In this document: positions 37 through 48,722 of the stretch, piece after piece | Position numbering within the stretch: position 1 is the stretch's first letter | Layout: each line of letters starts with the position of its first letter | Notes under the pieces: generated by a model | What the model saw: the letters and a program-made list of their open reading frames with translations, nothing else | What the model was told of the DNA's origin: nothing | The model's database searches: none | Assembly (NCBI GenBank): GCA_027449905.1 | Contig: DAIDKT010000075.1 | Span: forward strand, 28,263-92,262 | DNA: 64,000 nucleotides | DNA from: Legionellales bacterium | GTDB lineage: Bacteria; Pseudomonadota; Gammaproteobacteria; Legionellales; Legionellaceae | Direction: 5' to 3' | Translations under genes and position numbers: made by a program

Positions 37-294
37 ATGAAAGACAGTCAACACAGCACGGTTTGGCTTCTGATGACCAGTAATATCATCTCACTGCTGG
101 CCTGGGGTTCTTTGTTAATCCATCAGGTCATGAGTGCGTTAATCATGTTGACATTACTTTTGGTTTTGCTGTTAGTTATCGATAACAAGCTTTATGGAAT
201 GCGGCAGATTGAATTTTGGTTCATCAAACTGCGCAGGCAAGCTACGTTCTTTGTTGTGCTCTGCCTTGTTTCATCGGTAGTGGTGCTTTTATGA
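37..294 (+). CDS. hypothetical small hydrophobic (membrane) protein, 85 aa
   Basis: ORF with GGAG about 7 nt upstream of the ATG. Translation is strongly hydrophobic. No family recognised. Confidence 0.35.
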   Translation: MKDSQHSTVWLLMTSNIISLLAWGSLLIHQVMSALIMLTLLLVLLLVIDNKLYGMRQIEFWFIKLRRQATFFVVLCLVSSVVVLL

Positions 295-333
295 AAGGCC
301 AGGTAACCCGCGCCATGGCTGAATCTAATAACC

Positions 334-1473
334 CTAGACAATTTGCCATAAACTGTCAGTAAAATAGGCGCGTGAGTCAAGATAATGATCAACAATGCGA
401 AAACCTGTTGTTTTTGCTAGATTTTCTATTTGTGGCAGGGCATACTTACATGAGCTTTCCACATGCATGGATTCATTCAGATCAAAATTAAATGACTGGT
501 TCAATGCAGCCAGACTTACCACCTGTTTTTTAAGGCTAACCAGATAACTTTCCATGGTACCCAAGGCTTTATTATAAACAGGGCGGTGGTCAAATTGATT
601 GAGATCAAAGTCACCGCCAAGTTCTCGATTCATTCGTTCGAGCAGATTTAAGTTAAATGCGCGAGTAATGCCGGTTGTGTCATTGTATGCGCGGATCAAT
701 GTTTTTATGTCTTTTCGCAAGTCAAAGCCAATTAACACATAATCCCCCACATGCAAATATACACGTAAATGATGTAGGAATTCTTTTGTCTCTTGGAGGG
801 AGAAGTTACCAATGCTGGAGCCAAAAAACAACACAACGTTGCAACCTTTAGAATGGATGTGTTGGGGACCATTAGGATTCACACTGCCTAAGATTTGTTC
901 GTCTGACCCATGTCGCTGATCTGTTGCGGTGCCATAGTTTGCTTTATTAAAGAAGATCTCTGGTGCTTGCGACCAATTTAACGGAGGCTTAGTTTCAGGG
1001 GATGACAACATTTTTAAACCATGAAAGTAATCACCACAGATTGGATAGATGGAGAGACCAGGTTGATGATCATCCATTTTTTTAACCAGTTCTTTTAAAT
1101 ATCGAGATGAGATGTCAATCGGGACATAGGTTAATTCTATCTTTTGTTTTAAAAAATGATCAATCAGCAATTGTGTCTTGATGCCCTCGCCTGGACCTAA
1201 TTCAATTAAATTAACGGGTTTATTTTTAACATTTTTTGCTATTTTATCTTTATGTTTTTGTAAAATTTCGATTTCACAGGAAGTTAAATAATAATCAACG
1301 TGCTGAGTAATTTGATTGAATAGTTCGCTCCCTTTTTCATCATAAAAATACTTTGGCTTCAGCATTTTAGGTTTGTTTGATAAACCAATGAAAACATCTT
1401 GGATAAATTCATCTATTCCACCTGCTGGTTGGTGTTGCCCTAGTGGTTGAGAAATGTCAATAATTTGAGCCAT
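334..1473 (-). CDS. egtD: L-histidine N-alpha-methyltransferase EgtD (ergothioneine biosynthesis)
   Basis: SAM-methyltransferase motifs (LIELGPGEG, FFGSSIGNF) and EgtD-like overall pattern. Start moved to the ATG at 1473, which is preceded by GAGGAGG; the egtB stop lies within that RBS. The track start at 1617 would overlap egtB. Confidence 0.8.
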   Translation of the reverse strand: MAQIIDISQPLGQHQPAGGIDEFIQDVFIGLSNKPKMLKPKYFYDEKGSELFNQITQHVDYYLTSCEIEILQKHKDKIAKNVKNKPVNLIELGPGEGIKTQLLIDHFLKQKIELTYVPIDISSRYLKELVKKMDDHQPGLSIYPICGDYFHGLKMLSSPETKPPLNWSQAPEIFFNKANYGTATDQRHGSDEQILGSVNPNGPQHIHSKGCNVVLFFGSSIGNFSLQETKEFLHHLRVYLHVGDYVLIGFDLRKDIKTLIRAYNDTTGITRAFNLNLLERMNRELGGDFDLNQFDHRPVYNKALGTMESYLVSLKKQVVSLAALNQSFNFDLNESMHVESSCKYALPQIENLAKTTGFRIVDHYLDSRAYFTDSLWQIV

Positions 1474-2863: not shown

Positions 2864-3041
2864 CTGAACGTTTTTTCTAAAAACCAGGCTCTGTTTATAT
2901 TTCAGATTTCGACGTCTCTATTTATACCAGTTATTATCCTCCTGTAAGTCCAATTAATGGCATAAAACAACAAAAAAAGCACACTGACCGACTTAAATTT
3001 GCTATACTCATAACACAACCAAGTGTATCTTGTGGGGGAAC

Positions 3042-6000
3042 ATGCCAGTTAAATTAAGAGGAAAATCATACTCTGACGCTGATTTTGATGTGTTGGTCGC
3101 GGATTTAAGGTCTGGTTATTCATCTCGTCGTGTAAGTTTAGACTGCTTGGACATGGCTGCTGAGGATATTGAAGGGTTGTATCATGAAATCCAAGGCATT
3201 ACACCGCCTTTATTATGCATGATTCAATTAAAAATGCATGAGACGGTTGTGTGGACAACAGCGCCTGATTATTTTAAGAATAGACGGCAACAATTTCTGC
3301 TAGAGATGAATAAAGAAATTCAAGCGGCGCTGGGTGTAACTCACACTTCACAAACAATATCTGTTCATAAATCAAAAGAAAATTTGTTTCGCGGTAACCA
3401 AAACGCCAAGATTGCTGTTCAACAACAGCAACAGCAACAGCAACAGCAACAACAAGGACAAGAACAGCGATCCACCCAAATAGGACCTCGTGAATATAAA
3501 CCACTACCCAAAAATACACCGCTATATTCTAACCCCAAAGAGCTGACAAGCTTGATCACCAGAGACAATATTGCTTCGAATTCAAAGATAGTAGAAGCAT
3601 ATAGGGAGCGAGTGAAAGACATTCATGCACCCCCTCTCATCGAGATTTTGGATAGATTAATTGGTCATGGCAGTCAATATATTGGTGATAAGCGAAAAAC
3701 GGTTACTGCATTGACCGAAGAAGCGATGTTGGCCGTCATTCGTGATTACCCGGAGTTTGCTTTTGGTCTGGTTGAGGACACCTTACCAATTTATATTAAT
3801 GAAGCTGGTGAAATTACCCATCGTTTTGAATTGGAGGAAACAGGATACGGATTACTGTCTAGCAGTACATTAGATATGGAATCGATAAAATCTAAATTTG
3901 CAGGGCGGGTGGGTTATGTGCTACATGCCGAACAGATTTATTCTTTTGATGGTCAGGAATCACTCAACCCATTGGCCGGGAATAAAGCTCATCAAATAAA
4001 AAAACTGATACAATCATTTAAAAAGCAAGATGAAGTGACAATGGTGTCAGCTCATGACACTGGCGATGAAGTCCAGCGGGTTTTGTCTTTCAAGGAAACA
4101 AACACCCCTAGAGAACTTTATCAAGACAAACCATTTGCCATTTGTTTGTCAAGACACACGCTTAAGCCAGATCATGCGGCATATAAACAGTATGATGCTG
4201 GAGATGATGAATCATCATTGAATCGACATGTTGCAACATTGAATGACACCCAAAAGTCGGTCACTGACGTACAAGCTGCATTTAATTTTTTTCTTGCTAG
4301 TCAAGTGCCTGAGCATCAAGATACCGTTAGTAAGATTCAACTTTTGTTACAAAATTTAATTAAGAAATATTCAAATACCCTCGGGAATAGAAATACACAA
4401 AGCATGCAGTTCGATGCGAATTTTTATCGAGGCCTCACTTATATGTTGGTGGCAGGTGATAGTTCAGGGGTTCTTGTATTTTTATCTTTTTTGGATCAAT
4501 TAAAGGATATTGAGTTAATTCAAGACTTTCTGAAAGATTCAGACAACTATTTACACTGGGTGTCCAAGGAAGGTTATGAGCAATTAACCAGACTGACCCG
4601 GGCAAAGCCGGGTACCCTAGATTTGTCAACTAATGAACAAGCTTGGTGGAAGGCTTTTATCAAACAGCATGCATGTGATGGCAGACGCGTAGATTTTGAT
4701 GATTTATTTAAAGTGTTCACGGCGTTTTTAGAGAAACTAGGCCTCGGCCGTAGTCGCTTAGCCAGTGTTTGCCCTTTTCAACATGGTAACAACCAGATGA
4801 AAACAGCACTGTGTCGTTTGGATGCAATTGTGCAACAAAATCAACCAGATGATCCAAAGCAACCTAATGAGCAGCTATCTTACTTAAACGGGTTAGATCT
4901 CGGACCTTTGGGTGCTCATTTCGCCATCAATCACGAAAACACGAAGCTCGCCACCGATCAAATGCACTTTCAGGTGAGCAATGGATTTTTGTATGATATG
5001 GATTCAAAAAAAATTGTATTTGCTTATGAAATCCGCGATGAACAAACCTTCGCTAAGATCATGCAATTTAACCAATATTACCAAAAAGGTAAAATTAATG
5101 TGTTATCCGAGGCGTCTGATCACATTCCATTTGATTTGGGTGATATGCAGGCTTTCTTTCATCGTTATATCAAACAGCAGTCACAGACTTTTCCAGAAGA
5201 AAGTTATCTTGGGATTGTCCAATATATAGAGAAATTGAATTATCAATTAGAAGATAATGGTGCCCCAATGAGTGCGCAACATCAGGCCTCGCTGCTGTAC
5301 ACGCTGGCCATGGCATCAGCAGGGAAACGGGGGTGTGTGATCGAGTTGCAGGAACCGATGGGTCAACTGCCTGAATTTATAACGGCTTTATCTCACTATG
5401 CGAGCGTTGCTCAAACGCGAACAGAATCGCCTGGAACTGGATTAGAGCGTGCGCTAGAAATTTTCCATCAAGCTGAGTTTAAAATTGACACCAGCCCAAC
5501 CTTAAAAGAATTAACTACGATTCTAACCCTCGCAAGTGATTCGAAAACACCAGGCGAAGCAACAGCAACAGCAACAGCAACGCTCACCGATACGTTAGCA
5601 TTGATAAAGAACTATGGTTCGACAGCTTATACTATCATCAAGAATCATGAGAAACGTGTTGAAATAGTCAAGATTACAGACAGCACAAGGACGATTCAAT
5701 CACTTAATTTTGCGAAATTAGTCAAAGTATTCAATCAAATCGATCTGAAACAGCAGCAAGCCCAATTTCTAAAAAAACCGCCTGAAAATTTAAATTATTT
5801 GCTGACGTTGTTGTCTTTAATCGACGATCAAATTGACGACGAAACCAGTTACTCAGAAAAAATAAAACAGCTCATAGAGCAGTTGGAGCAATTAGCTGAA
5901 AAGGTTCGCAACCAGTTCTTAGCAGAGCTCAATGAAATTGATTTGGAGACTTCGAAAGGGTTGCCAACTTTTGCGTCGCTGAATGAGATGATCACAGACA

Positions 6001-9000
6001 TCTCTCAATTGAACAATGATAATTCATACTCTGAAAATGTCTTAAATGAAAAAATTCAGTCGGGCTTAAGCAAGACCAATACCAATAGTGGAAAAAAGTC
6101 ATTTGCTGCTTCCTCGCTTAATTTAGTGAAACTTCTGCAAAATTTTGTTGTGACATATCAATTAGATCGGGCGGAGACTTTATTAAAAAAGCACGTTGGA
6201 AAGATGCTTAAAAATGAAAAAGCCGGGAATAAAGCTCCAATTGCATGTAAACAATTGATTGACAGTGCGACGAATCTTTACCAAATACTTGTCGATGATA
6301 AGAAGAGTCCAAAAGAGTCTGTTGATATACGTGCCGCTTTAACTGAGTTGGAAAACTTGGATCAGTTTATGAAGGCAATACTGAATAATCCGATTTATAC
6401 AATTTGGATCTATCAACCTTTCGCGTATACATTACCATTTGAATATATACTAAATTATATCAAAGACAAGTTCTACACACAGGTAATGCAAGATCAAGTC
6501 CAACCTTTCTTCGAAAAAAAGACCATCAAAGTGTTTTTGAGTGCCATATGTGATGCTGAATGTAAAAAGCCATTGCAAGCAGCCATTGCTGCATTAAGGG
6601 TAGATGCTAATTTTAAAGCGTTTTTATCGGATCAATTACAATTGAAGACCGATCCAACCATTACCATGAAAGATGCTCTTGAACAGTATGGACGCGATCT
6701 AGCTATCTTGACCCAGTTTGTCAATCAATTGGGTGGATTACAAAATGAATGCGCCAAAGAGAAAAATTTACCGCTATTTTCAAAGTGTGTGGATCTCATA
6801 TATCAATCTGAAAATCGGGGCATGCTCCCTTTTCAGCGATTAACAGAACTCTTAACCGTGGTTGCTAAGCAAAAAAAATGGGGATTGGATGATCAGCTGG
6901 CATGTGTTTTTGAAATACTGCGGGCCGAATTGGGACGAGATCAAGAGCCTTCAGATAAACGATGGCAGAATATCATCGGTTGTTTAGAGATTTTGGTGCA
7001 AAAACAAAATGATTTAAATCCAGAATCAATTAAATTATTTTCTCAAGAAGCCATTCGCCACTGTTTAAAAAATGATAGTCCATTTTCCATTGAGCCGCTC
7101 CTTGCTTTGCAAGAGATGGATGGAGATGGAAAAATATTTAAACAGTTTTTGGCTTTTATCTCGGATGTGACTAGATACGCTCCAAATCAAGTGACAGAGG
7201 TGGTGGCTTTGACAATTGAGGTGCTGAAGGCAAAATCAGAGTCTCATCGGAACAAGTTAACAGCCTTTGTCGCCCAACTATTTTCTCATCTTCAAACCAT
7301 GGCTATTAAACTTGAATTTAATGATGAATTAATAAAGTATCAAGAGATACTCAGATCCATACCGGCTGAAGAAGAGGCCGCCAAACAATGGTTAACCATC
7401 CTGATTGCTTTGAATGAAGCGGGTAAGGATTCACCATCCTTTGCTGAATTGAAGGAGGTAATCAGGCTATTAGAAGATACAAATAAACAAGCAACTGTTT
7501 ATCCTTTATTTACTACCCCACCTTGCCCACCCATCAACGACCTGTTGCAAATTTTAGACAAGGATATCACTGAAATCCAAGAATACAAAAACAAGTTTGA
7601 TTTAAGCCCTTATCCTGAAACGAGTTTTGCACTTGAACAATTCACAAAACAGGAATTTGAGCTTGTTAAAAAATTACTTGCTAATAAGCAAGGGGACTTA
7701 TTGAGTTTAATAAAGGGTGTGAGTAGTGAGAATTATACAAAAACGCCTTTCACTCAAGAACAGGTTGACAATTTAAAAAAAGTGTTAGGTCACAATCAAT
7801 ATCCCGCCCTAGCTGCCAACCTAATAGACACCCAGAAATATGAAATCAATAAAGAATTCGATCTAGATCCCGATTCTATCCGCAGGGTGATTGGAGAACA
7901 TGTTGTTAACGGTAAAGTTGTTAAAGGGATTACTCAATATTTAGATAACCAAGGTTTGAGTGAGTCCGAGCAAACAAATTTGGTGAGGCAACTGGCATAT
8001 GTCAATGCCATGGGTCGAGATCAGCCTCTGATTTATCTAGATCAAAACGGCCACGCAGTTGAGTATTGGTTACAGAAAAGAATCCGGGATGACCTGCAAG
8101 AACTTGCGAAAAAATTGATGGATGCAGGAAAGAATACCAGCGATCCCGATGAAGCCCTGAAATTAGATTTACAATTATTGGCGGTGATGCGGGAGTTATA
8201 TTGTCGGGCAACCCTTCGCAATCCCAATTCCATTCAATTACTCACGCTGATCTTGGCTATCAATCACCCGACCAATTTGTTACTGCAGATTGATACTGGG
8301 GAAGGGAAGAGTGTATCTACGGCTTTATTCGCAGCATGGCGATGTTCCAAAGGACGAACCGTTTTGGTCCCGACTGCAAATCGTGATTTGGTTGCCCAAG
8401 ACTATCATCAGCAGAAAAATAAATATTTTTTTCAATTACTCGGTATGGAATCCGCTGTGGTGGAATCTGGTTCAGAGCGCGGTACCTTGCGGGTGGGGGG
8501 TATTCATTACGGTGCTTTTGGTGATCTATCCATTTATGGATCTGCCGCTAAATTGAGAGGAGAAGATTTAACCAAATTAAATGGAGAATTATATCCAACC
8601 GATGTCATCTATGATGAAGCTGATACGATGTTGGATGACAGGACGGGATATAATTTTTCTATTTTAAAAGAGGGGGGAGGCGATTTATATCACAATCCAA
8701 AAGAATGGATGTACTACGAGATTTTAGAATTTATTGCAAGTTCAGAGGCCTTTCAACGCATCGAAGAGGAGGATGGAGAACAACCGTGGGATCATCAACG
8801 GGACATCCTGGAATTACGCAGGCATCTAGATAATGCTGCCAAAACGCCTGAACAAAAAGATCAAGTGAGTGCTTTGACTTCATCTGATTTAAGCACGTGG
8901 ATTATTGGGGCGTGCGAAGTACTGAATTTAGAAATGGGTCGAGACTATGATATTCCGAAAACCCCCATCACGAGAATCATGAATGGTAGCGAAAAACAAA

Positions 9001-12000
9001 TCTATGTTGCAACCCCCATCAATGCCAGCGGGGTGCCGCAAATTGGCTCTTCCTATTTACATGGTCGACACCAGTTTCTGCATGCATATCTTGCGAAAGG
9101 TGTCCAAAACCCCACCAAAAAATTCGAAGCGATTTTAGCTAAAAGAGCTCAATTTCCGGGGACATTTGTCATTGATGCAGAAACCATGTGTGTTGCCACA
9201 GAATCAGCTCATAGCTTTTTATCAAGCTTTGCAGATGAACATCAAGGTGGCAGGTTTATTGCATTAACCGGAACGCCGGGCACCAAGGATGAGCGACTGG
9301 AATTAAATAAAAAATTGAACCTATTACCATTCAAAATCCCACCCCACCGCGAAAATTTACGTCAGGAGCTAGCCCCGGAGGTTATTAAAAATCGATACAT
9401 TGATTCAGATTATAAGCTGGCGCTGTTGTCTGAAACAACGTCCGGCAAGGAAAAAAAAGGGGTTGTTTATCTGAGCCAAAAAAACAACAAAATTGCCTAT
9501 TCGGTGTTGACCCCAGTCGGTCTGATAGTAGAAAAAGAAACGTCTATTCAGGTACCCGATCCATTTGATCTTAACAAATTAATATCACTCAAAGAAGATA
9601 TCTTGGCATACACCACCAAGCAAGGTCATACGTATCGAACGTCTATTCACGATACCATGATTAACAATGCCATCACGCAGCATGCTGGGAGAGCTGGTGG
9701 TCAAAGACAGCCTATTTTAGTTGTCGCACAGGATATTAACCACGCACGTGCCCATTATTATATTCTTTTAGAAAAATATGGAAAAGATCATGTTCAGTTG
9801 ATTACGGGTATGGAATCACCCGATGAATTAGAAGCAATGAAAAAGCGCGCTGGAGACGCGAATATGGTCACCGTCGGAACACCGTTATTAGGACGCGGTA
9901 CCGATATTAAACCAAAGCATAAGCAAGGTTTATTTGTTATCCAAACTTATCTTGACGCTCCGCGCAATACTCGTCAAATTGTTGGTCGTTCTGCACGAAA
10001 AGGTGCAATCGGTAAATACATGGCAATTTATGCAGAAGATAAATTTAAATTCCCAACCTACAGTATTTTAAATTTTTCTCGAAGCTTGACCCTTGCCGAA
10101 CGTCTGCAACAAATTGAAGCGCTGCAGCTAGAATCAAATGAAAATTCTGCGATTGAGCGACATTATACGCAAGAAGTGGATGACATTCAGCAAGTTTTGT
10201 TGAGGCAATTTGATGCGTGGATGCATGTCTTTTTGGCAGGAGGGCAAAAAGATCGAGAGCAATACAGGCAGGAAATTTTGAAGTTACGCGCGCAGTTAAT
10301 TCAAGATTTAAGTCAAGCATGGAGCGATAAATTAACTGAATCAGATCCTACCAATCAATATCCAAATCCATATGTCCGCCGATCAGCACAAGGCGGCCCC
10401 TTGGATACAAAAACATTAGACGATTTGTTAGATGATTTTGAGACCAGTGCGGAGTCCGGTGCCATTCATATCTGGAATAAAATCCAAGAGTCATTGGGTA
10501 AAATAGAGTTAAAAATTACCCCATCACCGAGAGAGTCCATTTGTTTAGCTTATTTAAAGGAAGATAAACTGGAAGAATCGTTGCATGCTAGAAAATTAAG
10601 ATTACAGCATCAACGCTATGAAACCACGCGGACCCACCGGGTAACGGAAGAACGTTCAAAGAGGCTGACAAATTTAGCATTAAACCAAGCAGGTGCGGTG
10701 TTACATTTTGATAAAGTAGCTTTGAATACACAAACCGAAAAATTATCACAAATAACTGAGCAGTATGCCGCGGATTATTTAAAAGCGATTTATGATCACT
10801 CTCCCAATCTTCGCCCGTCCTCTACAACGGTGCATAACTTAAATGAATGGTCTCCCGAAAAGTTTAAACAATTGGTGGAAACCCTATGCAAAAAAGTAAA
10901 TGTAAAGGCAGATTTGGTTGATTATCATTCGGCTGCAATTGAGTGTATCGATCTGTATGATCATGTGGTTGATGTTCCTGATTTTATACCGGAAGCTGAT
11001 AAGCAGGAGTTAAGTAAAAATATTGCAACATTAAAGGAGCATTGCATCACCGAGGTTTCAAACAATGTAGTGAAAGGGTTGATCGAAGATTTGAAGTGGT
11101 CTCAAAATAGAGAATATGTTTATACGGCGTTCGAAAATCCAAAAGTAACCGCTGCAGCTTCGAGCTTGTATAATATTGCTTTTCAAACGCAGAGTGCTTT
11201 GCAACAGATTGATCAACAAATTAATGCTGTTCAACAAAAGCCAGCCGATAGTTCGTCTTCAACTGGTTCCCTTGAGTTAGCAGAAAAAAAACAAAAGTTA
11301 ATAGAGCTCAAACAACAAAAATTGGCTGTGTTACATCAAGCATTAAATCAATATCATTTAACGTTGAGTAACATCTGGTCTTTCTTCCCCTTTGCAGAAT
11401 ATTTTTTTGGCATCAAAGATACCCGCAAAGTAATTGCTGAAAACTTAAATAAATTTGAATGTTTGGTCAGGATCGGTGTTTGTTCGGATGAAGTCCACTA
11501 TGATTCTTATGAGGCAGGAAAATGTGAAGCTTATTTAGAATCATTTAATGAAGAACTGCAGGCATATGATGATGACAATTCAGTCATCTTAAACTTAAAA
11601 AAAATTCAGGAAAACAATAAAGGATTAGCGGTTGTGGCAGAATTAACCCACTATTTGAAAACATTGCCCCAAGACCATCTCATACCGAAGAAACTTTCAA
11701 GGGTGGGATGGACCATGAACTGGACTTCACAATTTTTTCCTGTCAAGCCACGGACACCTAGCCAACGGCTGATAAATATACTCGATGCTGTTCAGAAAAA
11801 AATAAAAGCGGACGATCCTGAGGTTGATCCCGTGCGCGGCCGCTTGTTTTTATCTAAGAAAGAGGAAACCATTCGTCACTATTTGAACTTAGCTCCTGAA
11901 TACAAACTGCATATTCGACCTGGACATACAGGATTTGGAACCCATTTTGATTTGGTGATTGAGGGTGACAATCTCGAAAAAGTATCAGAACAATTAAAAT

Positions 12001-28511: not shown

Positions 28512-28658
28512 ATAAGACCTCTTGCATAACATGCGCCTTTTGCATGATTGCGGCGTTATAACATTTCTTCGGTGCTCATTTACTTATGTAAACTCCGCTC
28601 CTCGAAATGTTTATTCCTTGCACTCAAACAAAATTCGCAGGTTATGCAAGAGGTCTAT
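28512..28658. mobile_element. family-6 MITE-like element, 147 bp, with ~23-bp terminal inverted repeats (ATAAGACCTCTTGCATAACATGCG / CGCAGGTTATGCAAGAGGTCTAT)
   Basis: Terminal inverted repeats read directly. There is an internal second inverted repeat (AACATTTC..GAAATGTT). Single copy in this window. Confidence 0.65.
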
Positions 28659-38523: not shown

Positions 38524-40515
38524 GTGAACCATGACAAAAAAAATCTAGTGCGGTGGTGCGGAAGTTTTTTAATTGGTAATGTTATTTTGTTTTGGTTATT
38601 GGGGATGAGCTATTTAGATGCAGCTCCTTGGATTGCCTCAAAATATCTCGGTGGTAACGTTAAAATAACCTTGACCGCCTTTCTCCTGATGAGCTACTTG
38701 GCGCAATTAGCAATACTCGCTATGCTGCCAGGTTTATTGATTTTTTTGATTATTTTTGTTTATCCGCGCCGGTTATTTGTCTTCATGATGGCCATTGGGA
38801 TCATGACCCTGGGTGCCAGTTTGTTACTGGCTGATGCAGTAACTTATAAATTATTTCATTTTCATCTGCAAGGAATTGTACTCAATTTTATATTTGATGC
38901 CCGAGGTCACCAGATATTGGGTTTGTCAAAATATGAATATATCAGTTGTTTTTTGTTAGTGACCGGTATTTTGTTATATGAAGTCGTTTTGGCATATTAT
39001 TCATCATCTGGCATTTGGCGGGCTGGAAAATGGATCGTGATATCGATTGGTTTACTGATGTATGTGTCATATCTAATAATATTTTTTAGTATGAAAGAAA
39101 ATAAGGGTCGCGTTTTTTTAGAGACAGCCAGGGCGATTCCACTTTATGCTGATTTTTTATTCTCAGTGTTGCCAATTACAACAACGAGTCGCTTTAGTTT
39201 AGATCGCGCATATGAAATATATTTAATTCAACCAGACCAGCCAAATAAAGTGTTGCGCTACCCCTTACATCCCCTTCAATTTACACCACCCAAGCAGCAA
39301 TTAAATGTTGTCATGATTGTCATAGATGCTTGGCGTTTTGATATGTTGAATAAAAATGTTGTGCCACATATTGCCGAATTTGCGAAGTCTTCTTCTGTTT
39401 TCAAACAACACTTTAGTGGGGGGAATGCCACAGGGCCTGGCATTTTTTCATTGCTTTATGGGCTCCCATCGAACTATTGGACATCAATGGCAGCCCAACA
39501 ACGAGGCCCAATTTTAATTGATGAATTATTAAGACGAAATTATGATATAAAGATTTTAGCGAGCGCTGGTTTATATATGCCAGCATTCGATCATACCGTT
39601 TTTTCTGCAATTCACCATTTACAAAAAACGTTTCCTGGGAAAAGTCCGTATGATCGAGATGTTATGATTACTCAAGCCTTTAAACAATATATCAATCAAA
39701 TAACGGCATTGACCGCCGTTTCGACCAAAAATGCCGGGCCAAGTAACAGCCTACGTGCTCTGAGTAGGTTGGGCCTTGGCCCAACAATGAGCTTGGTTAC
39801 AACGGCGGCCAATGCCGAAATATCTCAGCATCAAGAACCCTTTTTTAGCTTCTTATTTTACGACGCTGCTCACGGTTATTGCGCTGTTGAACAGGCACGA
39901 ACACCATGGCAACCGGTGGTGAAAAACTGCGATCGAATCTATTTGACCGACCACACGGATCCGCTTCCTTACCTGAATCGTTACAAGAATGCTTTGCGTT
40001 TGGTTGATCAACAAGTGGGTTTGGTTATCGATGAACTAAAAGCACATCAGATGCTGGATAGAACGGTCGTTATTATCACCGGAGATCATGGTGAGGAATT
40101 TAATGACAATCATTTAAATGATTGGGGACATGCAAGCAATTTTACTCACTTTCAAGTGCAGACACCCTTAATTGTTTATTGGCCAAACAGATCAGCAAAA
40201 AAGGTCGAGTATGTAACAACCCATTTTGACATGGTTCCCACCCTCATGGAAAATTTACTGGGGTGTCAATCGCCGGCTGAAAACTACAGTCAGGGTCAAA
40301 CATTGTGGGCCCCAAAAAACTATCCATATCGAATTGTTGAAAGTTATGTTGGCATTGGTGTGATTGAAAACAATCAAATTACGACGATTTATCCAACGGG
40401 TACTTTTCAATTGACTGGTTTAGATAATCAACCGTTGGATCAAGCCCAATTAAATATGCCTATCATTCATTCGTTATTTCGGGATTTTCATCGATTTTAT
40501 GCGGCGGAGCAATAA
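38524..40515 (+). CDS. YejM/PbgA-like inner-membrane protein with periplasmic sulfatase-like domain, carrying a 40-codon repeat-derived insertion
   Basis: N-terminal polytopic domain plus alkaline-phosphatase-superfamily domain (VVMIVIDAWRFD, GGNATGPGIFSLLYG, ITGDHGEEF). GTG start. Insertion at 39705-39816, see findings. Confidence 0.75.
   Translation: MNHDKKNLVRWCGSFLIGNVILFWLLGMSYLDAAPWIASKYLGGNVKITLTAFLLMSYLAQLAILAMLPGLLIFLIIFVYPRRLFVFMMAIGIMTLGASLLLADAVTYKLFHFHLQGIVLNFIFDARGHQILGLSKYEYISCFLLVTGILLYEVVLAYYSSSGIWRAGKWIVISIGLLMYVSYLIIFFSMKENKGRVFLETARAIPLYADFLFSVLPITTTSRFSLDRAYEIYLIQPDQPNKVLRYPLHPLQFTPPKQQLNVVMIVIDAWRFDMLNKNVVPHIAEFAKSSSVFKQHFSGGNATGPGIFSLLYGLPSNYWTSMAAQQRGPILIDELLRRNYDIKILASAGLYMPAFDHTVFSAIHHLQKTFPGKSPYDRDVMITQAFKQYINQITALTAVSTKNAGPSNSLRALSRLGLGPTMSLVTTAANAEISQHQEPFFSFLFYDAAHGYCAVEQARTPWQPVVKNCDRIYLTDHTDPLPYLNRYKNALRLVDQQVGLVIDELKAHQMLDRTVVIITGDHGEEFNDNHLNDWGHASNFTHFQVQTPLIVYWPNRSAKKVEYVTTHFDMVPTLMENLLGCQSPAENYSQGQTLWAPKNYPYRIVESYVGIGVIENNQITTIYPTGTFQLTGLDNQPLDQAQLNMPIIHSLFRDFHRFYAAEQ
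39705..39816. mobile_element. family-1 MITE-like 112-bp palindromic element, copy inside the yejM-like CDS and read through in frame
   Basis: Same length and termini (GGCATTGACCGCC...GGCGGCCAATGCC) as 56187-56298. The interior matches when reverse-complemented. Flanks are CAAATAAC / GAAATATC (6 of 8 identical). Confidence 0.8.
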
Positions 40516-41719
40516 CCTTTTTTAGAGCAGACAAATAACGCGCTTCCAACTCAACGTCGATATAACGATCGGTTGTTGCGCTTGAACTATGTCCAGCGTC
40601 ATCACGCACATGTTCTCGTGGTCGAATTTTAACGTCCTCAGAGATTCCGGTGTGTCGTAACCAATGAACAGTGGCAAATCCCAAATTATCCGCTTCTTCG
40701 ATCTGATTTTGCTGACGTAAATCAGTGGCTGCCAAGTCAAAGCACAATTGAATGAGGCGCCTAATAGGGGCTGTGTCACTCATGGGGCCAGTGCCACGAA
40801 GTCTTGGAATCAACGGTGAGTTATCTGAGGGAGACGGGAGTGGAGTCAAACCTAAATATTGGCGCCAACGAACCAAGCTGGCTAACATGGCTGAACTAAC
40901 CGCAATTTTTCGCTCCTTATTACCCTTCCCAACCGTGGTAAACCACCAATATCCATGACTGTCCTTCGCAAAATGGTTCATCGACGGGACCCAACGAGGA
41001 CTGGCTGTCACTTCAGAAATACGCAAATACATTCCATATAACAGATTCAAAAGAAAACGGGTGCGTTCATGTTTTTCCGGATAAGTGTTAGCCAATCGAT
41101 CAGCTGCTTGTAAAACCGCATCCCATTGCGTGAGACTGAGCCGGCGAATAGGGGCTGTGTGCTGTTGTTTTCTGATAAATTTACTTTTTTGCCGAATTAA
41201 AGCAACTGGATTAGAGGCAATGTATTCCTCAGCAACTAAAAAGTTAAAAAATGTACTTAAAATTGCAAAAATTTCTTGGATAGCACCCTGCGATAAGCAA
41301 AAGTCAGTGATCGATGGTTGATGTCCTTGTTGTCGAGAAACTTTGCTGATGGTCGATACAAACGGACGCCAAGCTGGATTGGGTTTGCGTAGGCCCCCTT
41401 CAACAACAAAGCGAGGACATTTCTTTAAACTAATCCAGGAATGGGGGGGATTTTGGCAAAATCGTATAAACGATTCAATTTGTTCTCTTGTTAATGCTGT
41501 AATCGATAATTCTTTGATGCGCCAACTCCATTGTAAAAGCCGTTCAACTTCTCGTCGGTAACTATTAAAAGTCCCAACACTCCCCACGTAATTTTTGAGA
41601 AAGTCTAGAGCATAATTAAAATCTAATTGAAAGCGATTATTTGGAAGGATGGCGTTAGCAGCATTTTTGTTGACATATTCTAGGCTATCGAAAAAAGGAA
41701 GTAATTCAGTATTCATCAT
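40463..41719 (-). CDS. tyrosine recombinase / phage-type integrase
   Basis: C-terminal catalytic motifs (HWLRHTG, GHSSSATTDRY). ATG at 41719 (MMNTELL) is preceded by AGGAGA; the track start at 41785 has no RBS. Its 3' end overlaps the yejM-like 3' end by 53 nt (convergent). Confidence 0.8.
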   Translation of the reverse strand: MMNTELLPFFDSLEYVNKNAANAILPNNRFQLDFNYALDFLKNYVGSVGTFNSYRREVERLLQWSWRIKELSITALTREQIESFIRFCQNPPHSWISLKKCPRFVVEGGLRKPNPAWRPFVSTISKVSRQQGHQPSITDFCLSQGAIQEIFAILSTFFNFLVAEEYIASNPVALIRQKSKFIRKQQHTAPIRRLSLTQWDAVLQAADRLANTYPEKHERTRFLLNLLYGMYLRISEVTASPRWVPSMNHFAKDSHGYWWFTTVGKGNKERKIAVSSAMLASLVRWRQYLGLTPLPSPSDNSPLIPRLRGTGPMSDTAPIRRLIQLCFDLAATDLRQQNQIEEADNLGFATVHWLRHTGISEDVKIRPREHVRDDAGHSSSATTDRYIDVELEARYLSALKKVIAPPHKIDENPEITNE

Positions 41720-41845
41720 ATTTCTCCTGTTTGTTGGGCATGGGTCTCGCGGTGTTCCATCAAAATTAATTACAAATGATAACATTATATATTGACCTAG
41801 AAATCGACTCCAGGTATTATTTGCGCTCGGCCGTTAAGACGGTTT

Positions 41846-41922
41846 CGGGGTGTAGCGCAGTCTGGTAGCGCGCCTGCTTTGGGAGCAGGATGTCGGGAGT
41901 TCGAATCTCTCCACCCCGACCA
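41846..41922 (+). tRNA. tRNA-Pro (anticodon TGG)
   Basis: Manual cloverleaf: 7-bp acceptor CGGGGTG/CACCCCG, anticodon loop TTTGGGA, T-loop TTCGAAT, encoded CCA. Confidence 0.9.
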
Positions 41923-41931
41923 ATTATACAT

Positions 41932-42008
41932 GCGCCCGTAGCTCATTTGGATAGAGCATCGGCCTTCTAAGCCGAGGGTAGCAGGTTCGAATCCTGCCGG
42001 GCGTACCA
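41932..42008 (+). tRNA. tRNA-Arg (anticodon TCT)
   Basis: Manual cloverleaf: anticodon stem TCGGC/GCCGA, loop CTTCTAA, T-loop TTCGAAT, encoded CCA. Confidence 0.9.
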
Positions 42009-42076
42009 GACGTCAAGCAGTGACTAGCACCAAGGTTTTTTACGGAATGAGTTGTTGTTATTGATCTTAATTTATG

Positions 42077-42152
42077 GTGGACGTAGCTCAGTTGGTAGAG
42101 CCCCGGGTTGTGATCCCGGTTGTCGTGGGTTCGAGCCCCATCGTTCACCCCA
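42077..42152 (+). tRNA. tRNA-His (anticodon GTG, with G-1)
   Basis: Manual cloverleaf: extra 5' G, anticodon stem CCGGG/CCCGG, loop TTGTGAT, T-loop TTCGAGC, encoded CCA. Confidence 0.9.
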
Positions 42153-42174
42153 GTTATTGTAAATCCCATGTTTA

Positions 42175-42259
42175 GCGAAAGTGGCGGAATTGGTAGACGC
42201 ACTGGATTTAGGTTCCAGCGGGGTAACCTGTGAGAGTTCGAGTCTCTCCTTTCGCACCA
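42175..42259 (+). tRNA. tRNA-Leu (anticodon TAG), long variable arm
   Basis: Manual cloverleaf: acceptor GCGAAAG/CTTTCGC, anticodon loop TTTAGGT, 85 nt, encoded CCA. Confidence 0.9.
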
Positions 42260-46058: not shown

Positions 46059-46075
46059 TTAAATTGGAGCGTATT

Positions 46076-48505
46076 ATGTCAGGTGAAATTGAATTAGCAC
46101 CGAAAGAGCCGGCAGATTTATCGAATTTACCGGTACTTCCCCTAAGAGATGTTGTTGTTTATCCACACATGGTTATTCCACTCTTTGTTGGCAGACAAAA
46201 ATCGATTAAAGCGCTTGAAGCAGCCATGCTTGAGAACAAACAAATTGTTCTGATTGCTCAGAAGCGTTCAGCTGATGACGATCCAACTCCTGATGATTTG
46301 TTTATGGTCGGTACTGTTTCCAGCCTGCTCCAGTTATTAAAGCTGCCCGATGGGACAGTCAAGGTTCTGGTAGAGGGCGAACAACGCGTAAAAGTATCTA
46401 ATTTTTCTGAACCAGATGACGGGAGTTACATTGCTGCTTCGTTAGAAACAGTCGATGAGGTAAACACAGCTTTCAAAAAAGAAGAAGTGCAGATCATGAT
46501 GCGCTCTCTGATGTCTCAATTTGAACAATACATTAAGTTAAACAAAAAAATTCCACCAGAGGTGCTTGGTTCACTGGCAGCGATTGAAGAACCAGGCAGA
46601 CTAACAGATACGATTGCGGCACATTTATCTCTTAAAGTAGAAGACAAGCAAGACCTATTAGAAGCGTTGGATGTTGGTGTTCGTCTTGAGCGTTTAATGG
46701 GTGCTATAGAAAACGAAATTGATTTACTACAGGTTGAAAAACGCGTTCGGGGTCGGGTTAAACGCCAAATGGAAAAAAGCCAGCGAGAATATTACCTGAA
46801 TGAGCAAATGAAAGCCATACAGAAGGAATTAGGGGAGATAAGCGAAGAAGGCAACGAAATAGCGCAGTTAGAGAGAGCGATATCAAAAGCAGGTATGCCG
46901 AAAGAGGCACATGAGAAGGCGACCGCAGAACTCAAAAAATTAAAACTCATGCCGCCCATGTCAGCTGAGGCAACGGTGATTCGCGGCTATCTAGATTGGA
47001 TGCTTAGCGTTCCTTGGAAGAAAAGGAATCGCATTCAGTTTGACCTAGATAAAGCAGAAAGGTTACTTGATAAAGATCATTATGGCTTGGAAAAAGTCAA
47101 AGAACGAATCATTGAATACTTGGCCGTGCAACAACGAGTGAAGCGTTTAAAAGGCCCTATCATTTGTTTGGTTGGCCCCCCAGGCGTTGGAAAAACATCA
47201 TTAGGACAATCAATTGCCAATGCGACAGGGCGAACCTTCATTCGAATTGCACTTGGTGGTGTTCGTGATGAAGCTGAGATTCGCGGGCATCGTCGAACTT
47301 ACATTGGCTCAATGCCAGGAAAAATTATTCAGAAGCTTTGTAAAGCAGGGGTAAAAAACCCGCTTATTATGCTAGATGAGGTTGATAAGATGGCCATGGA
47401 TTTCCGTGGCGATCCAGCCTCAGCCTTACTAGAAGTGTTAGATCCAGAGCAAAATCACACATTCAATGATCATTACTTAGAAGTTAATTATGATTTAAGT
47501 GATGTCATGTTTATTGCCACGGCCAATTCACTAGAAATTCCTGCGCCATTGCTTGATCGAATGGAGGTTATTCGTTTGGCTGGATATACAGAAGATGAAA
47601 AGGTGAATATCGCTAAAAATTATTTGATTCCAAAGCAGACGGTTCTTAATGGCATTCGACTCAAAGAGGTTGACTTTACTGATGCTGCTGTTCATGAAAT
47701 TGTTCGTTACTACACTCGGGAAGCCGGTGTACGAAATCTAGAGCGAGAATTAGCGCACATTTGTCGAAAAGTGGTCAAAGACATTTTAACGAGCAAGCGA
47801 GTTAAACAGGTCCATGTCACCCCTAAAAATATTGAGAAATTCTTAGGGGTGCGTAAATTCAGATATGGGTTAGCAGAAACCGTGGATGAAGTTGGACAAG
47901 TAACTGGTTTGGCCTGGACCAGCGTTGGTGGTGAGTTGCTAACCATTGAAGCGTCCATGATGCCGGGTAAAGGTAAAACACTTCATACTGGTCAATTGGG
48001 AGAGGTGATGCAAGAGTCGATTCATGCAGCCATGACCGTTGTTAGAGGGCGAATGAAGCAATTTGGTATTCCGGAAGATTTTTACGAAAAAAATGATTTT
48101 CACATTCATGTGCCGGAAGGGGCCACGCCAAAGGATGGTCCTAGTGCGGGTATTGGTATGTGCACCGCGTTGGTTTCTGTGATTACTCATATTCCTGTTA
48201 GAGCGGATGTCGCGATGACAGGAGAAATTACCCTGCGCGGTCTGGTGTTGCCTATTGGTGGTTTAAAAGAAAAATTACTGGCAGCTCACCGTGGTGGTAT
48301 CAAACATGTCATTATTCCAGAGGAAAATCAAAAAGATTTGACCGAGATACCGGCCAATATATTAAAAAAATTAGTTGTGCATCCGGTAAAAAATATTGAA
48401 GAAGTATTGGAGTTAGCTTTGCAACGCAGCCCAATCGTTAAGGAAAAGGTCACGAAGCCAAAGAGCCAATCAAGAAAAAAGGTAACTACCCAGCATGATG
48501 ACTGA
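46076..48505 (+). CDS. lon: ATP-dependent Lon protease
   Basis: LON N-domain, Walker A GPPGVGKTS and the catalytic serine motif PKDGPSAG. ATG at 46076 with GGAG RBS. Confidence 0.92.
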   Translation: MSGEIELAPKEPADLSNLPVLPLRDVVVYPHMVIPLFVGRQKSIKALEAAMLENKQIVLIAQKRSADDDPTPDDLFMVGTVSSLLQLLKLPDGTVKVLVEGEQRVKVSNFSEPDDGSYIAASLETVDEVNTAFKKEEVQIMMRSLMSQFEQYIKLNKKIPPEVLGSLAAIEEPGRLTDTIAAHLSLKVEDKQDLLEALDVGVRLERLMGAIENEIDLLQVEKRVRGRVKRQMEKSQREYYLNEQMKAIQKELGEISEEGNEIAQLERAISKAGMPKEAHEKATAELKKLKLMPPMSAEATVIRGYLDWMLSVPWKKRNRIQFDLDKAERLLDKDHYGLEKVKERIIEYLAVQQRVKRLKGPIICLVGPPGVGKTSLGQSIANATGRTFIRIALGGVRDEAEIRGHRRTYIGSMPGKIIQKLCKAGVKNPLIMLDEVDKMAMDFRGDPASALLEVLDPEQNHTFNDHYLEVNYDLSDVMFIATANSLEIPAPLLDRMEVIRLAGYTEDEKVNIAKNYLIPKQTVLNGIRLKEVDFTDAAVHEIVRYYTREAGVRNLERELAHICRKVVKDILTSKRVKQVHVTPKNIEKFLGVRKFRYGLAETVDEVGQVTGLAWTSVGGELLTIEASMMPGKGKTLHTGQLGEVMQESIHAAMTVVRGRMKQFGIPEDFYEKNDFHIHVPEGATPKDGPSAGIGMCTALVSVITHIPVRADVAMTGEITLRGLVLPIGGLKEKLLAAHRGGIKHVIIPEENQKDLTEIPANILKKLVVHPVKNIEEVLELALQRSPIVKEKVTKPKSQSRKKVTTQHDD

Positions 48506-48510
48506 ACATT

Positions 48511-48586
48511 ATTCTGAACGAAGTGAAAGATCTCCTGAATTAGCCCCAAATTAAATCAGTTTGAGTTCCTTCACTTCGTTCAGAAT
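48511..48586. repeat. family-4 palindromic element with perfect 17-bp arms (ATTCTGAACGAAGTGAA / TTCACTTCGTTCAGAAT)
   Basis: Read directly. Begins 6 nt after the lon stop. Confidence 0.75.
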
Positions 48587-48647: not shown

Positions 48648-48722
48648 ATCCTGAACGCAGAGATCTGCAAAATTTGGTTCAAACCAAGTTCAGTTGAGAT
48701 GGTTCACTTCGTTCAGGATGAC
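48648..48722. repeat. family-4 palindromic element (ATCCTGAACG ... TTCACTTCGTTCAGGATGAC), second tandem copy
   Basis: 10-bp perfect arms. Right arm nearly identical to that of 48511-48586 and to 30142-30153. Confidence 0.7.

Follow-up and report, generated by a model that had tools for sequence, protein, structure and literature searches.

A 112-bp palindromic element, very probably a miniature inverted-repeat transposable element, lies in frame within a yejM/pbgA-like gene of a Legionellaceae-like genome

The DNA considered here is a 64-kb stretch of contig DAIDKT010000075.1 from a Legionellales bacterium, called the window throughout, and it carries a gene resembling yejM/pbgA whose open reading frame (ORF) contains a 112-bp palindromic element. 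This element, designated copy A, has a counterpart of the same length, copy B, which lies in mutually opposite orientation between two other genes of the window (Table 1). Both copies show the hallmarks of a miniature inverted-repeat transposable element (MITE), and the host ORF has remained open across the insert.

Table 1 Coordinates of the host gene, the two element copies and their parts
Feature	Position	Strand	Remarks
Host gene, YejM/PbgA/LapC-like	38524..40515	+	663 aa (623 aa without insert); DUF3413 membrane and periplasmic sulfatase-like domains
MITE copy A	39705..39816	+	112 bp, inside the yejM-like ORF; frame 2 encodes residues ~395-431
Copy A target-site duplication, left copy	39697..39704		CAAATAAC; encodes Q-I-T, at the orthologue-like 'DQxx' position
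Copy A target-site duplication, right copy	39817..39824		GAAATATC; encodes E-I-S, two substitutions relative to left copy
Copy A left terminal inverted repeat	39705..39717	+	GGCATTGACCGCC
Copy A right terminal inverted repeat	39804..39816	-	GGCATTGGCCGCC on the minus strand
Central GC-rich hairpin module	39736..39782		GGGCC..CCTAC-N9-GTAGG..GGCCC; also in the palindromic elements of L040 and L042
MITE copy B	56187..56298	-	112 bp, intergenic, between acetoacetyl-CoA-synthetase-like and metN-like genes
Copy B target-site duplication, left copy	56179..56186		GTGATCCA
Copy B target-site duplication, right copy	56299..56306		GTGATCCA; perfect

Host gene and insertion site

The ORF of the host gene reads through copy A without a stop codon. 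The 112 bp of the element and 8 bp of duplicated target sum to 120 bp and hence to 40 added codons, as the initial annotation had proposed. Specifically, the element begins at the third position of codon T394, which places the insertion between codons 394 and 395, and the added residues comprise the duplicated Q-I-T and a 37-residue peptide rich in Ala, Leu, Ser, Thr, Gly and Pro, with stretches such as NQITALTAVSTK and TTAANAEISQHQEPFFSF. The duplicated target formerly encoded Q-I-T on both sides, and two substitutions have since turned the right copy into E-I-S.

Alignment with orthologues bears out the suggestion of a lineage-specific insertion. The 40-residue segment is absent from 34 of 34 aligned YejM orthologues (39-53% identity in the alignments), and excision of the 120 bp yields ...YINQIT QHQEPFFSF, in which eight residues separate 'FI/YI' from 'PFFSF', the same spacing as in the orthologues (e.g. 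FIDQVQVNQQPFFSF). A 25-sequence alignment contains 74 invariant columns, many of them 3' of the insert (e.g. GDHGEEFND); the host protein (P0001) is itself part of this alignment and therefore retains these columns by definition.

Profile alignment to the YejM chains of the PDB locates the insertion between WLGRYA and QEDNRWFSW(V) of E. coli YejM, at about residues 387/388, in agreement with the position that had initially been proposed (WLGRY..RWFSW). The site is the turn that leads from a long helix to the next beta-strand of the periplasmic sulfatase-like domain. The structure prediction proposed at the outset places a low-confidence segment at this turn: in the AlphaFold2 model, insert residues ~403-436 have pLDDT values of 40-60 and the flanks exceed 90, with a helix (375-402) before and a strand (440-446) after the segment. 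The same turn carries 3-10 extra residues in three orthologues (P0043, P0060 and P0038), and the loop is therefore naturally variable in length.

The host protein contains the Pfam domains PF11893 (DUF3413, N-terminal) and PF00884 (Sulfatase) and matches the solved YejM/PbgA chains of the PDB by sequence. The top Foldseek matches of its AlphaFold model are 6xlp_A and 6v8q_A, and the modelled periplasmic domain superposes on that of Salmonella and E. coli YejM with a TMt of ~0.87. Against the NCBIfam model LapC_YejM_PbgA (NF038282) the protein scores 194.7 bits and does not reach the cut-off of 825; since this score lies far under a narrow cut-off, the protein is a distant member of the YejM family, with ~21% identity to the enterobacterial proteins, and its kinship suggests functional equivalence to enterobacterial YejM. 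The initial annotation had spoken of a lipid-homeostasis protein with an essential counterpart in E. coli. Its YejM/PbgA-like identity stands, but the argument from essentiality is weakened, as the periplasmic domain of PbgA (residues 191-586) is reported to be dispensable for viability in Salmonella (PMC6921655).

The genome had also been described as of Legionellales type. The ClpX protein encoded in the window is 89% identical to a protein of a metagenome-assembled genome labelled 'Legionellaceae bacterium' and 82-83% identical to that of many Legionella species, which supports this assignment.

The two copies in the window

Comparison of copy A with the reverse complement of copy B yields 93 ungapped identities over 112 positions (83%), as compared with 48/112 in the same orientation, and the match between the two has an E-value of 1.3e-26 within the window (blastn). 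The initial description of two equally long, oppositely oriented copies with the same termini is thereby reproduced; a third copy was not detected in the 64 kb by blastn (word size 7) or nhmmer. Both copies end in 13-bp terminal inverted repeats (TIRs), GGCATTGRCCGCC, and this 13-mer occurs with zero mismatches exactly four times in the window, namely at the four ends of A and B. As read along the window, the termini are GGCATTGACCGCC...GGCGGCCAATGCC, and their inverted symmetry runs on, imperfectly, to ~23 nt.

A direct repeat of 8 bp, perfect in sequence (8/8; chance ~1.5e-5), brackets copy B; it had initially been overlooked. The flanks of copy A agree at six of eight positions (chance ~0.004). 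The proposal that the latter constitute a decayed 8-bp target duplication gains weight from the perfect repeat at B and from a 7/8 repeat around a related element elsewhere (see below). The elements have a G+C content of 57-59%, compared with 41.7% for the window, and either strand of each copy is predicted to fold into one long imperfect hairpin of -55 to -65 kcal/mol (z = -6.8 to -8.3). A transposase gene is absent from the 112 bp, whose sole stop-free frames encode 37-residue low-complexity peptides; these are frame 2 only, on each strand, in both window copies and in the family consensus.

The location of copy B is a typical intergenic MITE position. It lies 29 bp downstream of the stop (56328) of the acetoacetyl-CoA-synthetase-like gene and 23 bp upstream of the TTG start (56163) of the metN-like gene, both genes being on the minus strand; the TTG start is a mechanical call, and an ATG further downstream may be the real start.

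Related elements outside the window

The element family was followed beyond the window by an exhaustive HMMER search of 1.84 billion protein representatives with a profile of four element-encoded peptides, a search biased toward intragenic copies. It recovered the host protein and two small ORFs that cover most or all of the element peptide; the whole peptide is found in only two called ORFs among these representatives, only one of which is a recognisable housekeeping gene. At the DNA level, a copy on an ENA metagenome contig (L038, 806-917) is exactly 112 bp long and matches A at 95 and B at 93 of 112 positions, its 8-bp flanking duplication not being clear-cut. Another copy, on a second ENA metagenome contig (L039, ~1705-1816), agrees with the others at 78-82/112 positions and is decayed at its ends; it is located between two DDE transposase genes, which lack element-type termini within the contig. 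The concern that the two window copies might be the only occurrences is thus laid to rest by copies in other metagenomes. The 112-bp consensus of four copies is GGCATTGACCGCCGTTCCGACCAAAAATGCTGGGCCAAGGCCCAGCCTACGTGCTCTGAGTAGGTTGGGCCTTGGCCCAACAAAGAGCTTGGTCGCAACGGCGGTCAATGCC, from which A, B and the L038 copy each differ at 9-10 private positions (9 in A), or ~8-9%, a star-like pattern that would be typical of an old transposition burst. The consensus hairpin structure is conserved, but covariation analysis finds compensatory change in only 2 of 41 stem pairs and hence no evidence of selection on the structure beyond shared descent.

On L038, a small ORF with a helix-turn-helix domain (P0122; 546-944, plus strand) runs on through the 112-bp copy, using the other stop-free frame, up to its own stop; this may be another in-frame case, on a contig of 1 kb whose gene content is uncertain. 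The same contig carries a fragment of a group II intron (D1-D4; 270-438, minus strand) that matches RF02001 at 35.6 bits, over the gathering score.

Further elements share only parts of the window element. A JGI contig of 39% G+C (L035) harbours a 110-bp palindrome at 7037-7146 with the same 23-nt left end, a decayed right end and a different core hairpin; its flanks (7029-7036 and 7147-7154) read TAAAAACG/TAAAAATG, identical at 7 of 8 positions. Flanking 8-bp repeats of differing sequence thus accompany three insertions, at 8/8 (B), 6/8 (A) and 7/8 (L035). Weaker HMMER matches lead to elements that have only the core hairpin in common, GCTGGGCCAAGGCCCAGCCTAC-N9-GTAGGTTGGGCCTTGGCCCAACAA. Among these, a 113-bp palindrome at 10112-10224 of contig L040 (identical in L041) combines the core hairpin of the window element with TIRs of 15 bp that match perfectly, CCGGAATTGCCGTGG. 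The direct repeat on either side of this palindrome, AAAATATTCGCTGTTC, is likewise perfect and, at 16 bp, unusually long for a duplication; the contig has 42% G+C and encodes a RhoGEF-domain protein. A 541-bp contig of project YUYA23-1 (L042) contains two tandem core-hairpin units at 128-331 without termini of the window type. Additionally, L035 holds two 175-bp palindromes (1388-1562 and 9162-9336) with termini TAGGTTCTGTTGACAATTC, which we take to be IS6-like. An inner CTACG...CGTAG hairpin is common to these palindromes and to the 110-bp element with window-type termini on the same contig, which is evidence for module shuffling between MITE families. In these sequences, termini and core behave as separable modules.

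Other searches returned no relatives. A gathering-threshold Rfam search of the window reported tRNAs only, and a permissive Rfam search of L038, L039 and L042 gave nothing over the element copies except sub-threshold miRNA-hairpin noise. The element peptides match no Pfam or NCBIfam model at E <= 10 and returned no match in a word-indexed protein search. The 112-bp element has no match in PLSDB plasmids (blastn), which should include those of Coxiella, or in viral contigs (two scans), and a literature search for its sequence strings produced primer coincidences only. Pattern scans were dominated by chance: a TIR-pair scan of 185,579 GTDB representative genomes gave a single such match, in a GC-rich coding region of Szabonella alba, and of the 36 loci returned by a one-end scan of JGI metagenomes, 35 match by coincidence, in coding DNA that is mostly GC-rich, L035 being the sole relative. 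One discarded locus, L009, is a chance match inside a molybdopterin oxidoreductase that encodes ...MDETAANA. Furthermore, the best ClpX match (P0130, 537 aa; L043 3071-4684) was ruled out as a close relative, as it lies on a contig of 56% G+C and has an internal duplication of ~113 residues, which is probably an assembly artefact unrelated to the element.

Origin of the insert

The absence of the segment from 34 orthologues that have precisely the spacing restored by excision, together with the TIRs and the flanking repeats, supports an insertion. As such, copy A is in all likelihood a non-autonomous DNA transposon, a MITE, which entered the yejM/pbgA-like gene in frame and has been tolerated there. 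In the proposed mechanism, a 112-bp imperfect palindrome that forms a hairpin over nearly its whole length and carries 13-bp TIRs would be mobilised in trans by the DDE transposase of some insertion sequence (IS) that makes 8-bp duplications, and would duplicate 8 bp of target on insertion. The insertion hit the phase corresponding to the one stop-free frame of that strand, leaving the ORF intact, and the 40 extra residues probably form a flexible surface loop in the periplasm. Tolerance would be explained by a permissive loop at the insertion site, within a domain of PbgA that enterobacteria can lose and remain viable, and the insert is presumably translated and close to selectively neutral. 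In addition, an mRNA hairpin of ~-60 kcal/mol may modulate the stability or translation of the yejM mRNA.

Several points weigh against this interpretation. Neither the window nor the fetched loci nor the pattern scans yielded an autonomous IS with the same termini, and the nearest YejM proteins are only 49-53% identical, so that no close relative offers an empty site for comparison; the 90% clusters of the host protein and of a neighbouring protein are singletons. The count of two copies covers the 64-kb window of the source genome. Moreover, an open frame is not a demanding outcome: two of the six combinations of phase and orientation are stop-free, so that one third of random insertions would keep the ORF, and a 37-codon frame of this composition is free of stops by chance with a probability of ~0.27 (our own estimate per frame). 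Neither the 120-bp length nor the open frames therefore need be adaptations.

These same odds give a prior of about one third for read-through if the yejM-like gene had become a pseudogene only recently, or had a paralogue that made it redundant, and owed its open frame to luck, a scenario also favoured by the reported non-essentiality of the periplasmic domain in Salmonella (PMC6921655). It is nonetheless very improbable, given that 663 codons are intact with every family-invariant residue kept (in the host-containing alignment described above), while the element and its duplication have meanwhile changed by ~8-12%; had 2 kb decayed neutrally to this degree, stops or indels should have appeared. 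The persistence of the ORF, despite ~8% decay of the element and change at two of eight duplicated positions, could also be read as a sign of exaptation, in which the 40-residue loop serves YejM, for instance by offering an additional surface for interactions in the periplasm, or selection maintains the mRNA hairpin as a regulator of yejM expression. A triple substitution in copy A (element positions 40-42), which weakens the inner stem, points the same way, and similar proposals have been made for Rickettsia palindromic elements (RPEs) by Ogata and colleagues (PMC10969869). Such a role is nevertheless distinctly unlikely for an insert that is disordered and of low confidence in the model, whose peptide is no better conserved in the coding copy than in the intergenic one, which is found in no orthologue among those aligned, and whose stem shows so few compensatory changes.

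The remaining explanations concern how the sequence arose. An ancestral coding segment, copied to the intergenic site by gene conversion or as a duplicated gene fragment, would account for the bare similarity of the two loci and nothing more. It has next to no probability and is effectively refuted: the segment is missing from 34/34 orthologues, TIRs and flanking duplications occur at both loci, copies are found in unrelated contexts in other metagenomes, and the G+C content of the element departs from that of its surroundings. An intein or intron can also be ruled out for a 112-bp sequence with TIRs and a duplication and without conserved splicing blocks. Quite improbable, in turn, is a route without a DDE transposase, in which the element belongs to the world of repetitive extragenic palindromic (REP) sequences and their RAYT enzymes or to a site-specific (IS110/IS1111-like) system, and the flanking repeats are target motifs. 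Three independent insertions with three different 8-bp repeats, GTGATCCA, CAAATAAC and TAAAAACG, carry the signature of duplication after a staggered cut, the TIRs are well defined, and REPs are not known to generate target duplications. Pointing in the other direction are the GC-rich hairpin core bounded by CTAC...GTAG, which recalls the REP cores in QMITE2 of Coxiella (PMC5896051), the reappearance of the same core between different termini in L040 and as tandem arrays in L042, and the 16-bp rather than 8-bp repeat around the L040 relative.

Relation to known systems

As a DNA transposon of the MITE type, the element constitutes a previously undescribed family in a Legionellaceae-like genome; the phenomenon itself is already known. 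A 2024 review calls it 'not unusual' for intragenic MITEs to form in-frame fusions (PMC10969869), and a survey of the same year found MITEs in 99.6% of Legionella genomes and ~10% of bacterial MITEs in intragenic positions (PMC11602168). The closest functional analogue are the RPEs (Ogata et al. 2000, via PMC10969869), which likewise are palindromic repeats of ~100-150 bp with a stop-free frame that occur in frame in housekeeping genes of a host-associated lineage and add a peptide at a structurally permissive site while leaving the host protein intact. Membership among the RPEs fails on lineage and peptide similarity: the host is a Legionellaceae-like gammaproteobacterium and not Rickettsia, and the peptides match no NCBIfam or Pfam model (the NCBIfam release is assumed to include RPE models). 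Furthermore, TIRs of 13 bp are clearly present here, as is a target duplication of 8 bp, and RPEs are frequently intragenic, in contrast to the two called ORFs that contain the whole peptide here.

The closest phylogenetic neighbours are the QMITEs of Coxiella. QMITE2 of Coxiella burnetii (PMC5896051) belongs to the same order, Legionellales, and resembles the window element in several respects: it has TIRs and variable direct repeats (7-11 nt, against 8 bp here), folds into a highly stable hairpin, carries GTAG/CTAC at the borders of its core palindrome, is built modularly, with full-length and core-only versions, and lies mostly between genes or in 3'-untranslated regions, as does copy B. 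This is a resemblance by description only. QMITE2 differs in size (150-190 bp versus 112 bp, which excludes membership on this count) and in overlapping ORF ends by 1-10 bp only rather than lying in frame inside genes (PMC5896051). QMITE1 of Coxiella, intragenic ERIC sequences and Correia and other MITEs (PMC10969869) likewise extend into annotated ORFs or form fusions with them, and code for short peptides, but their sizes, termini and duplication lengths are not those of the window element (QMITE1 measures 300-400 bp and has repeats of 2-3 nt), and no sequence relationship to these QMITE1-, ERIC- or Correia-type elements was detected. REPs and bacterial interspersed mosaic elements share the GC-rich imperfect palindrome, the GTAG/CTAC at the base of the stem and the reuse of a core module across element types; unlike them, the window element at full length is bounded by TIRs, comes with an 8-bp duplication and measures 112 bp rather than 20-40 bp.

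We know of no in-frame MITE insertion described in a conserved envelope-biogenesis gene of Legionellaceae relatives. The case presented here is clean and well delimited: TIRs and a target duplication are present, and excision returns precisely the spacing of the orthologues. The loop of YejM/PbgA that tolerates 40 extra residues could serve for tagging or engineering, and searches in protein space with MITE-encoded peptides recover copies that exact DNA patterns miss. Our understanding of MITEs or of YejM is otherwise unchanged, as in-frame MITE fusions have already been documented (PMC10969869, PMC11602168). A broader and unlikely extension would be an 'ORF-compatible' MITE family, 120 bp long with its duplication, with one stop-free frame per strand and a flexible peptide rich in Ala, Leu, Gly and Pro, that recurrently seeds surface loops in Legionellales proteins—an independent, convergent counterpart of the RPEs in a second intracellular lineage, with termini and core hairpin as exchangeable modules that other palindromic elements would also carry.

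Neighbouring features

Next to the host gene, a tyrosine-recombinase-like ORF (40463-41785, minus strand; Phage_integrase, 27.8 bits, just over the cut-off) shares 53 bp with the 3' end of the yejM-like gene. It adjoins a cluster of tRNA-Pro/Arg/His/Leu genes (41846-42259) upstream of tig-clpP-clpX-lon, and ORF and cluster may mark the boundary of a genomic island. Directly downstream of the lon-like ORF (46064-48505) lie two ~75-bp hairpin repeats (48511-48586 and 48648-48719), 133 bp apart, with termini ATYCTGAACG...CGTTCAGRAT, which look like a third small family of palindromic repeats. An intergenic 142-bp imperfect palindrome at 28515-28656, with 53-nt arms that are 75% complementary, a 36-nt spacer and termini AGACCTCTTGCATAAC...GTTATGCAAGAGGTCT, may represent another MITE-like family. 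Finally, the window contains a very large ORF (3030-12671, plus strand) of 3213 aa with CAG/CAA (poly-Gln) runs and repeats at 3409-3467 and 5546-5592.

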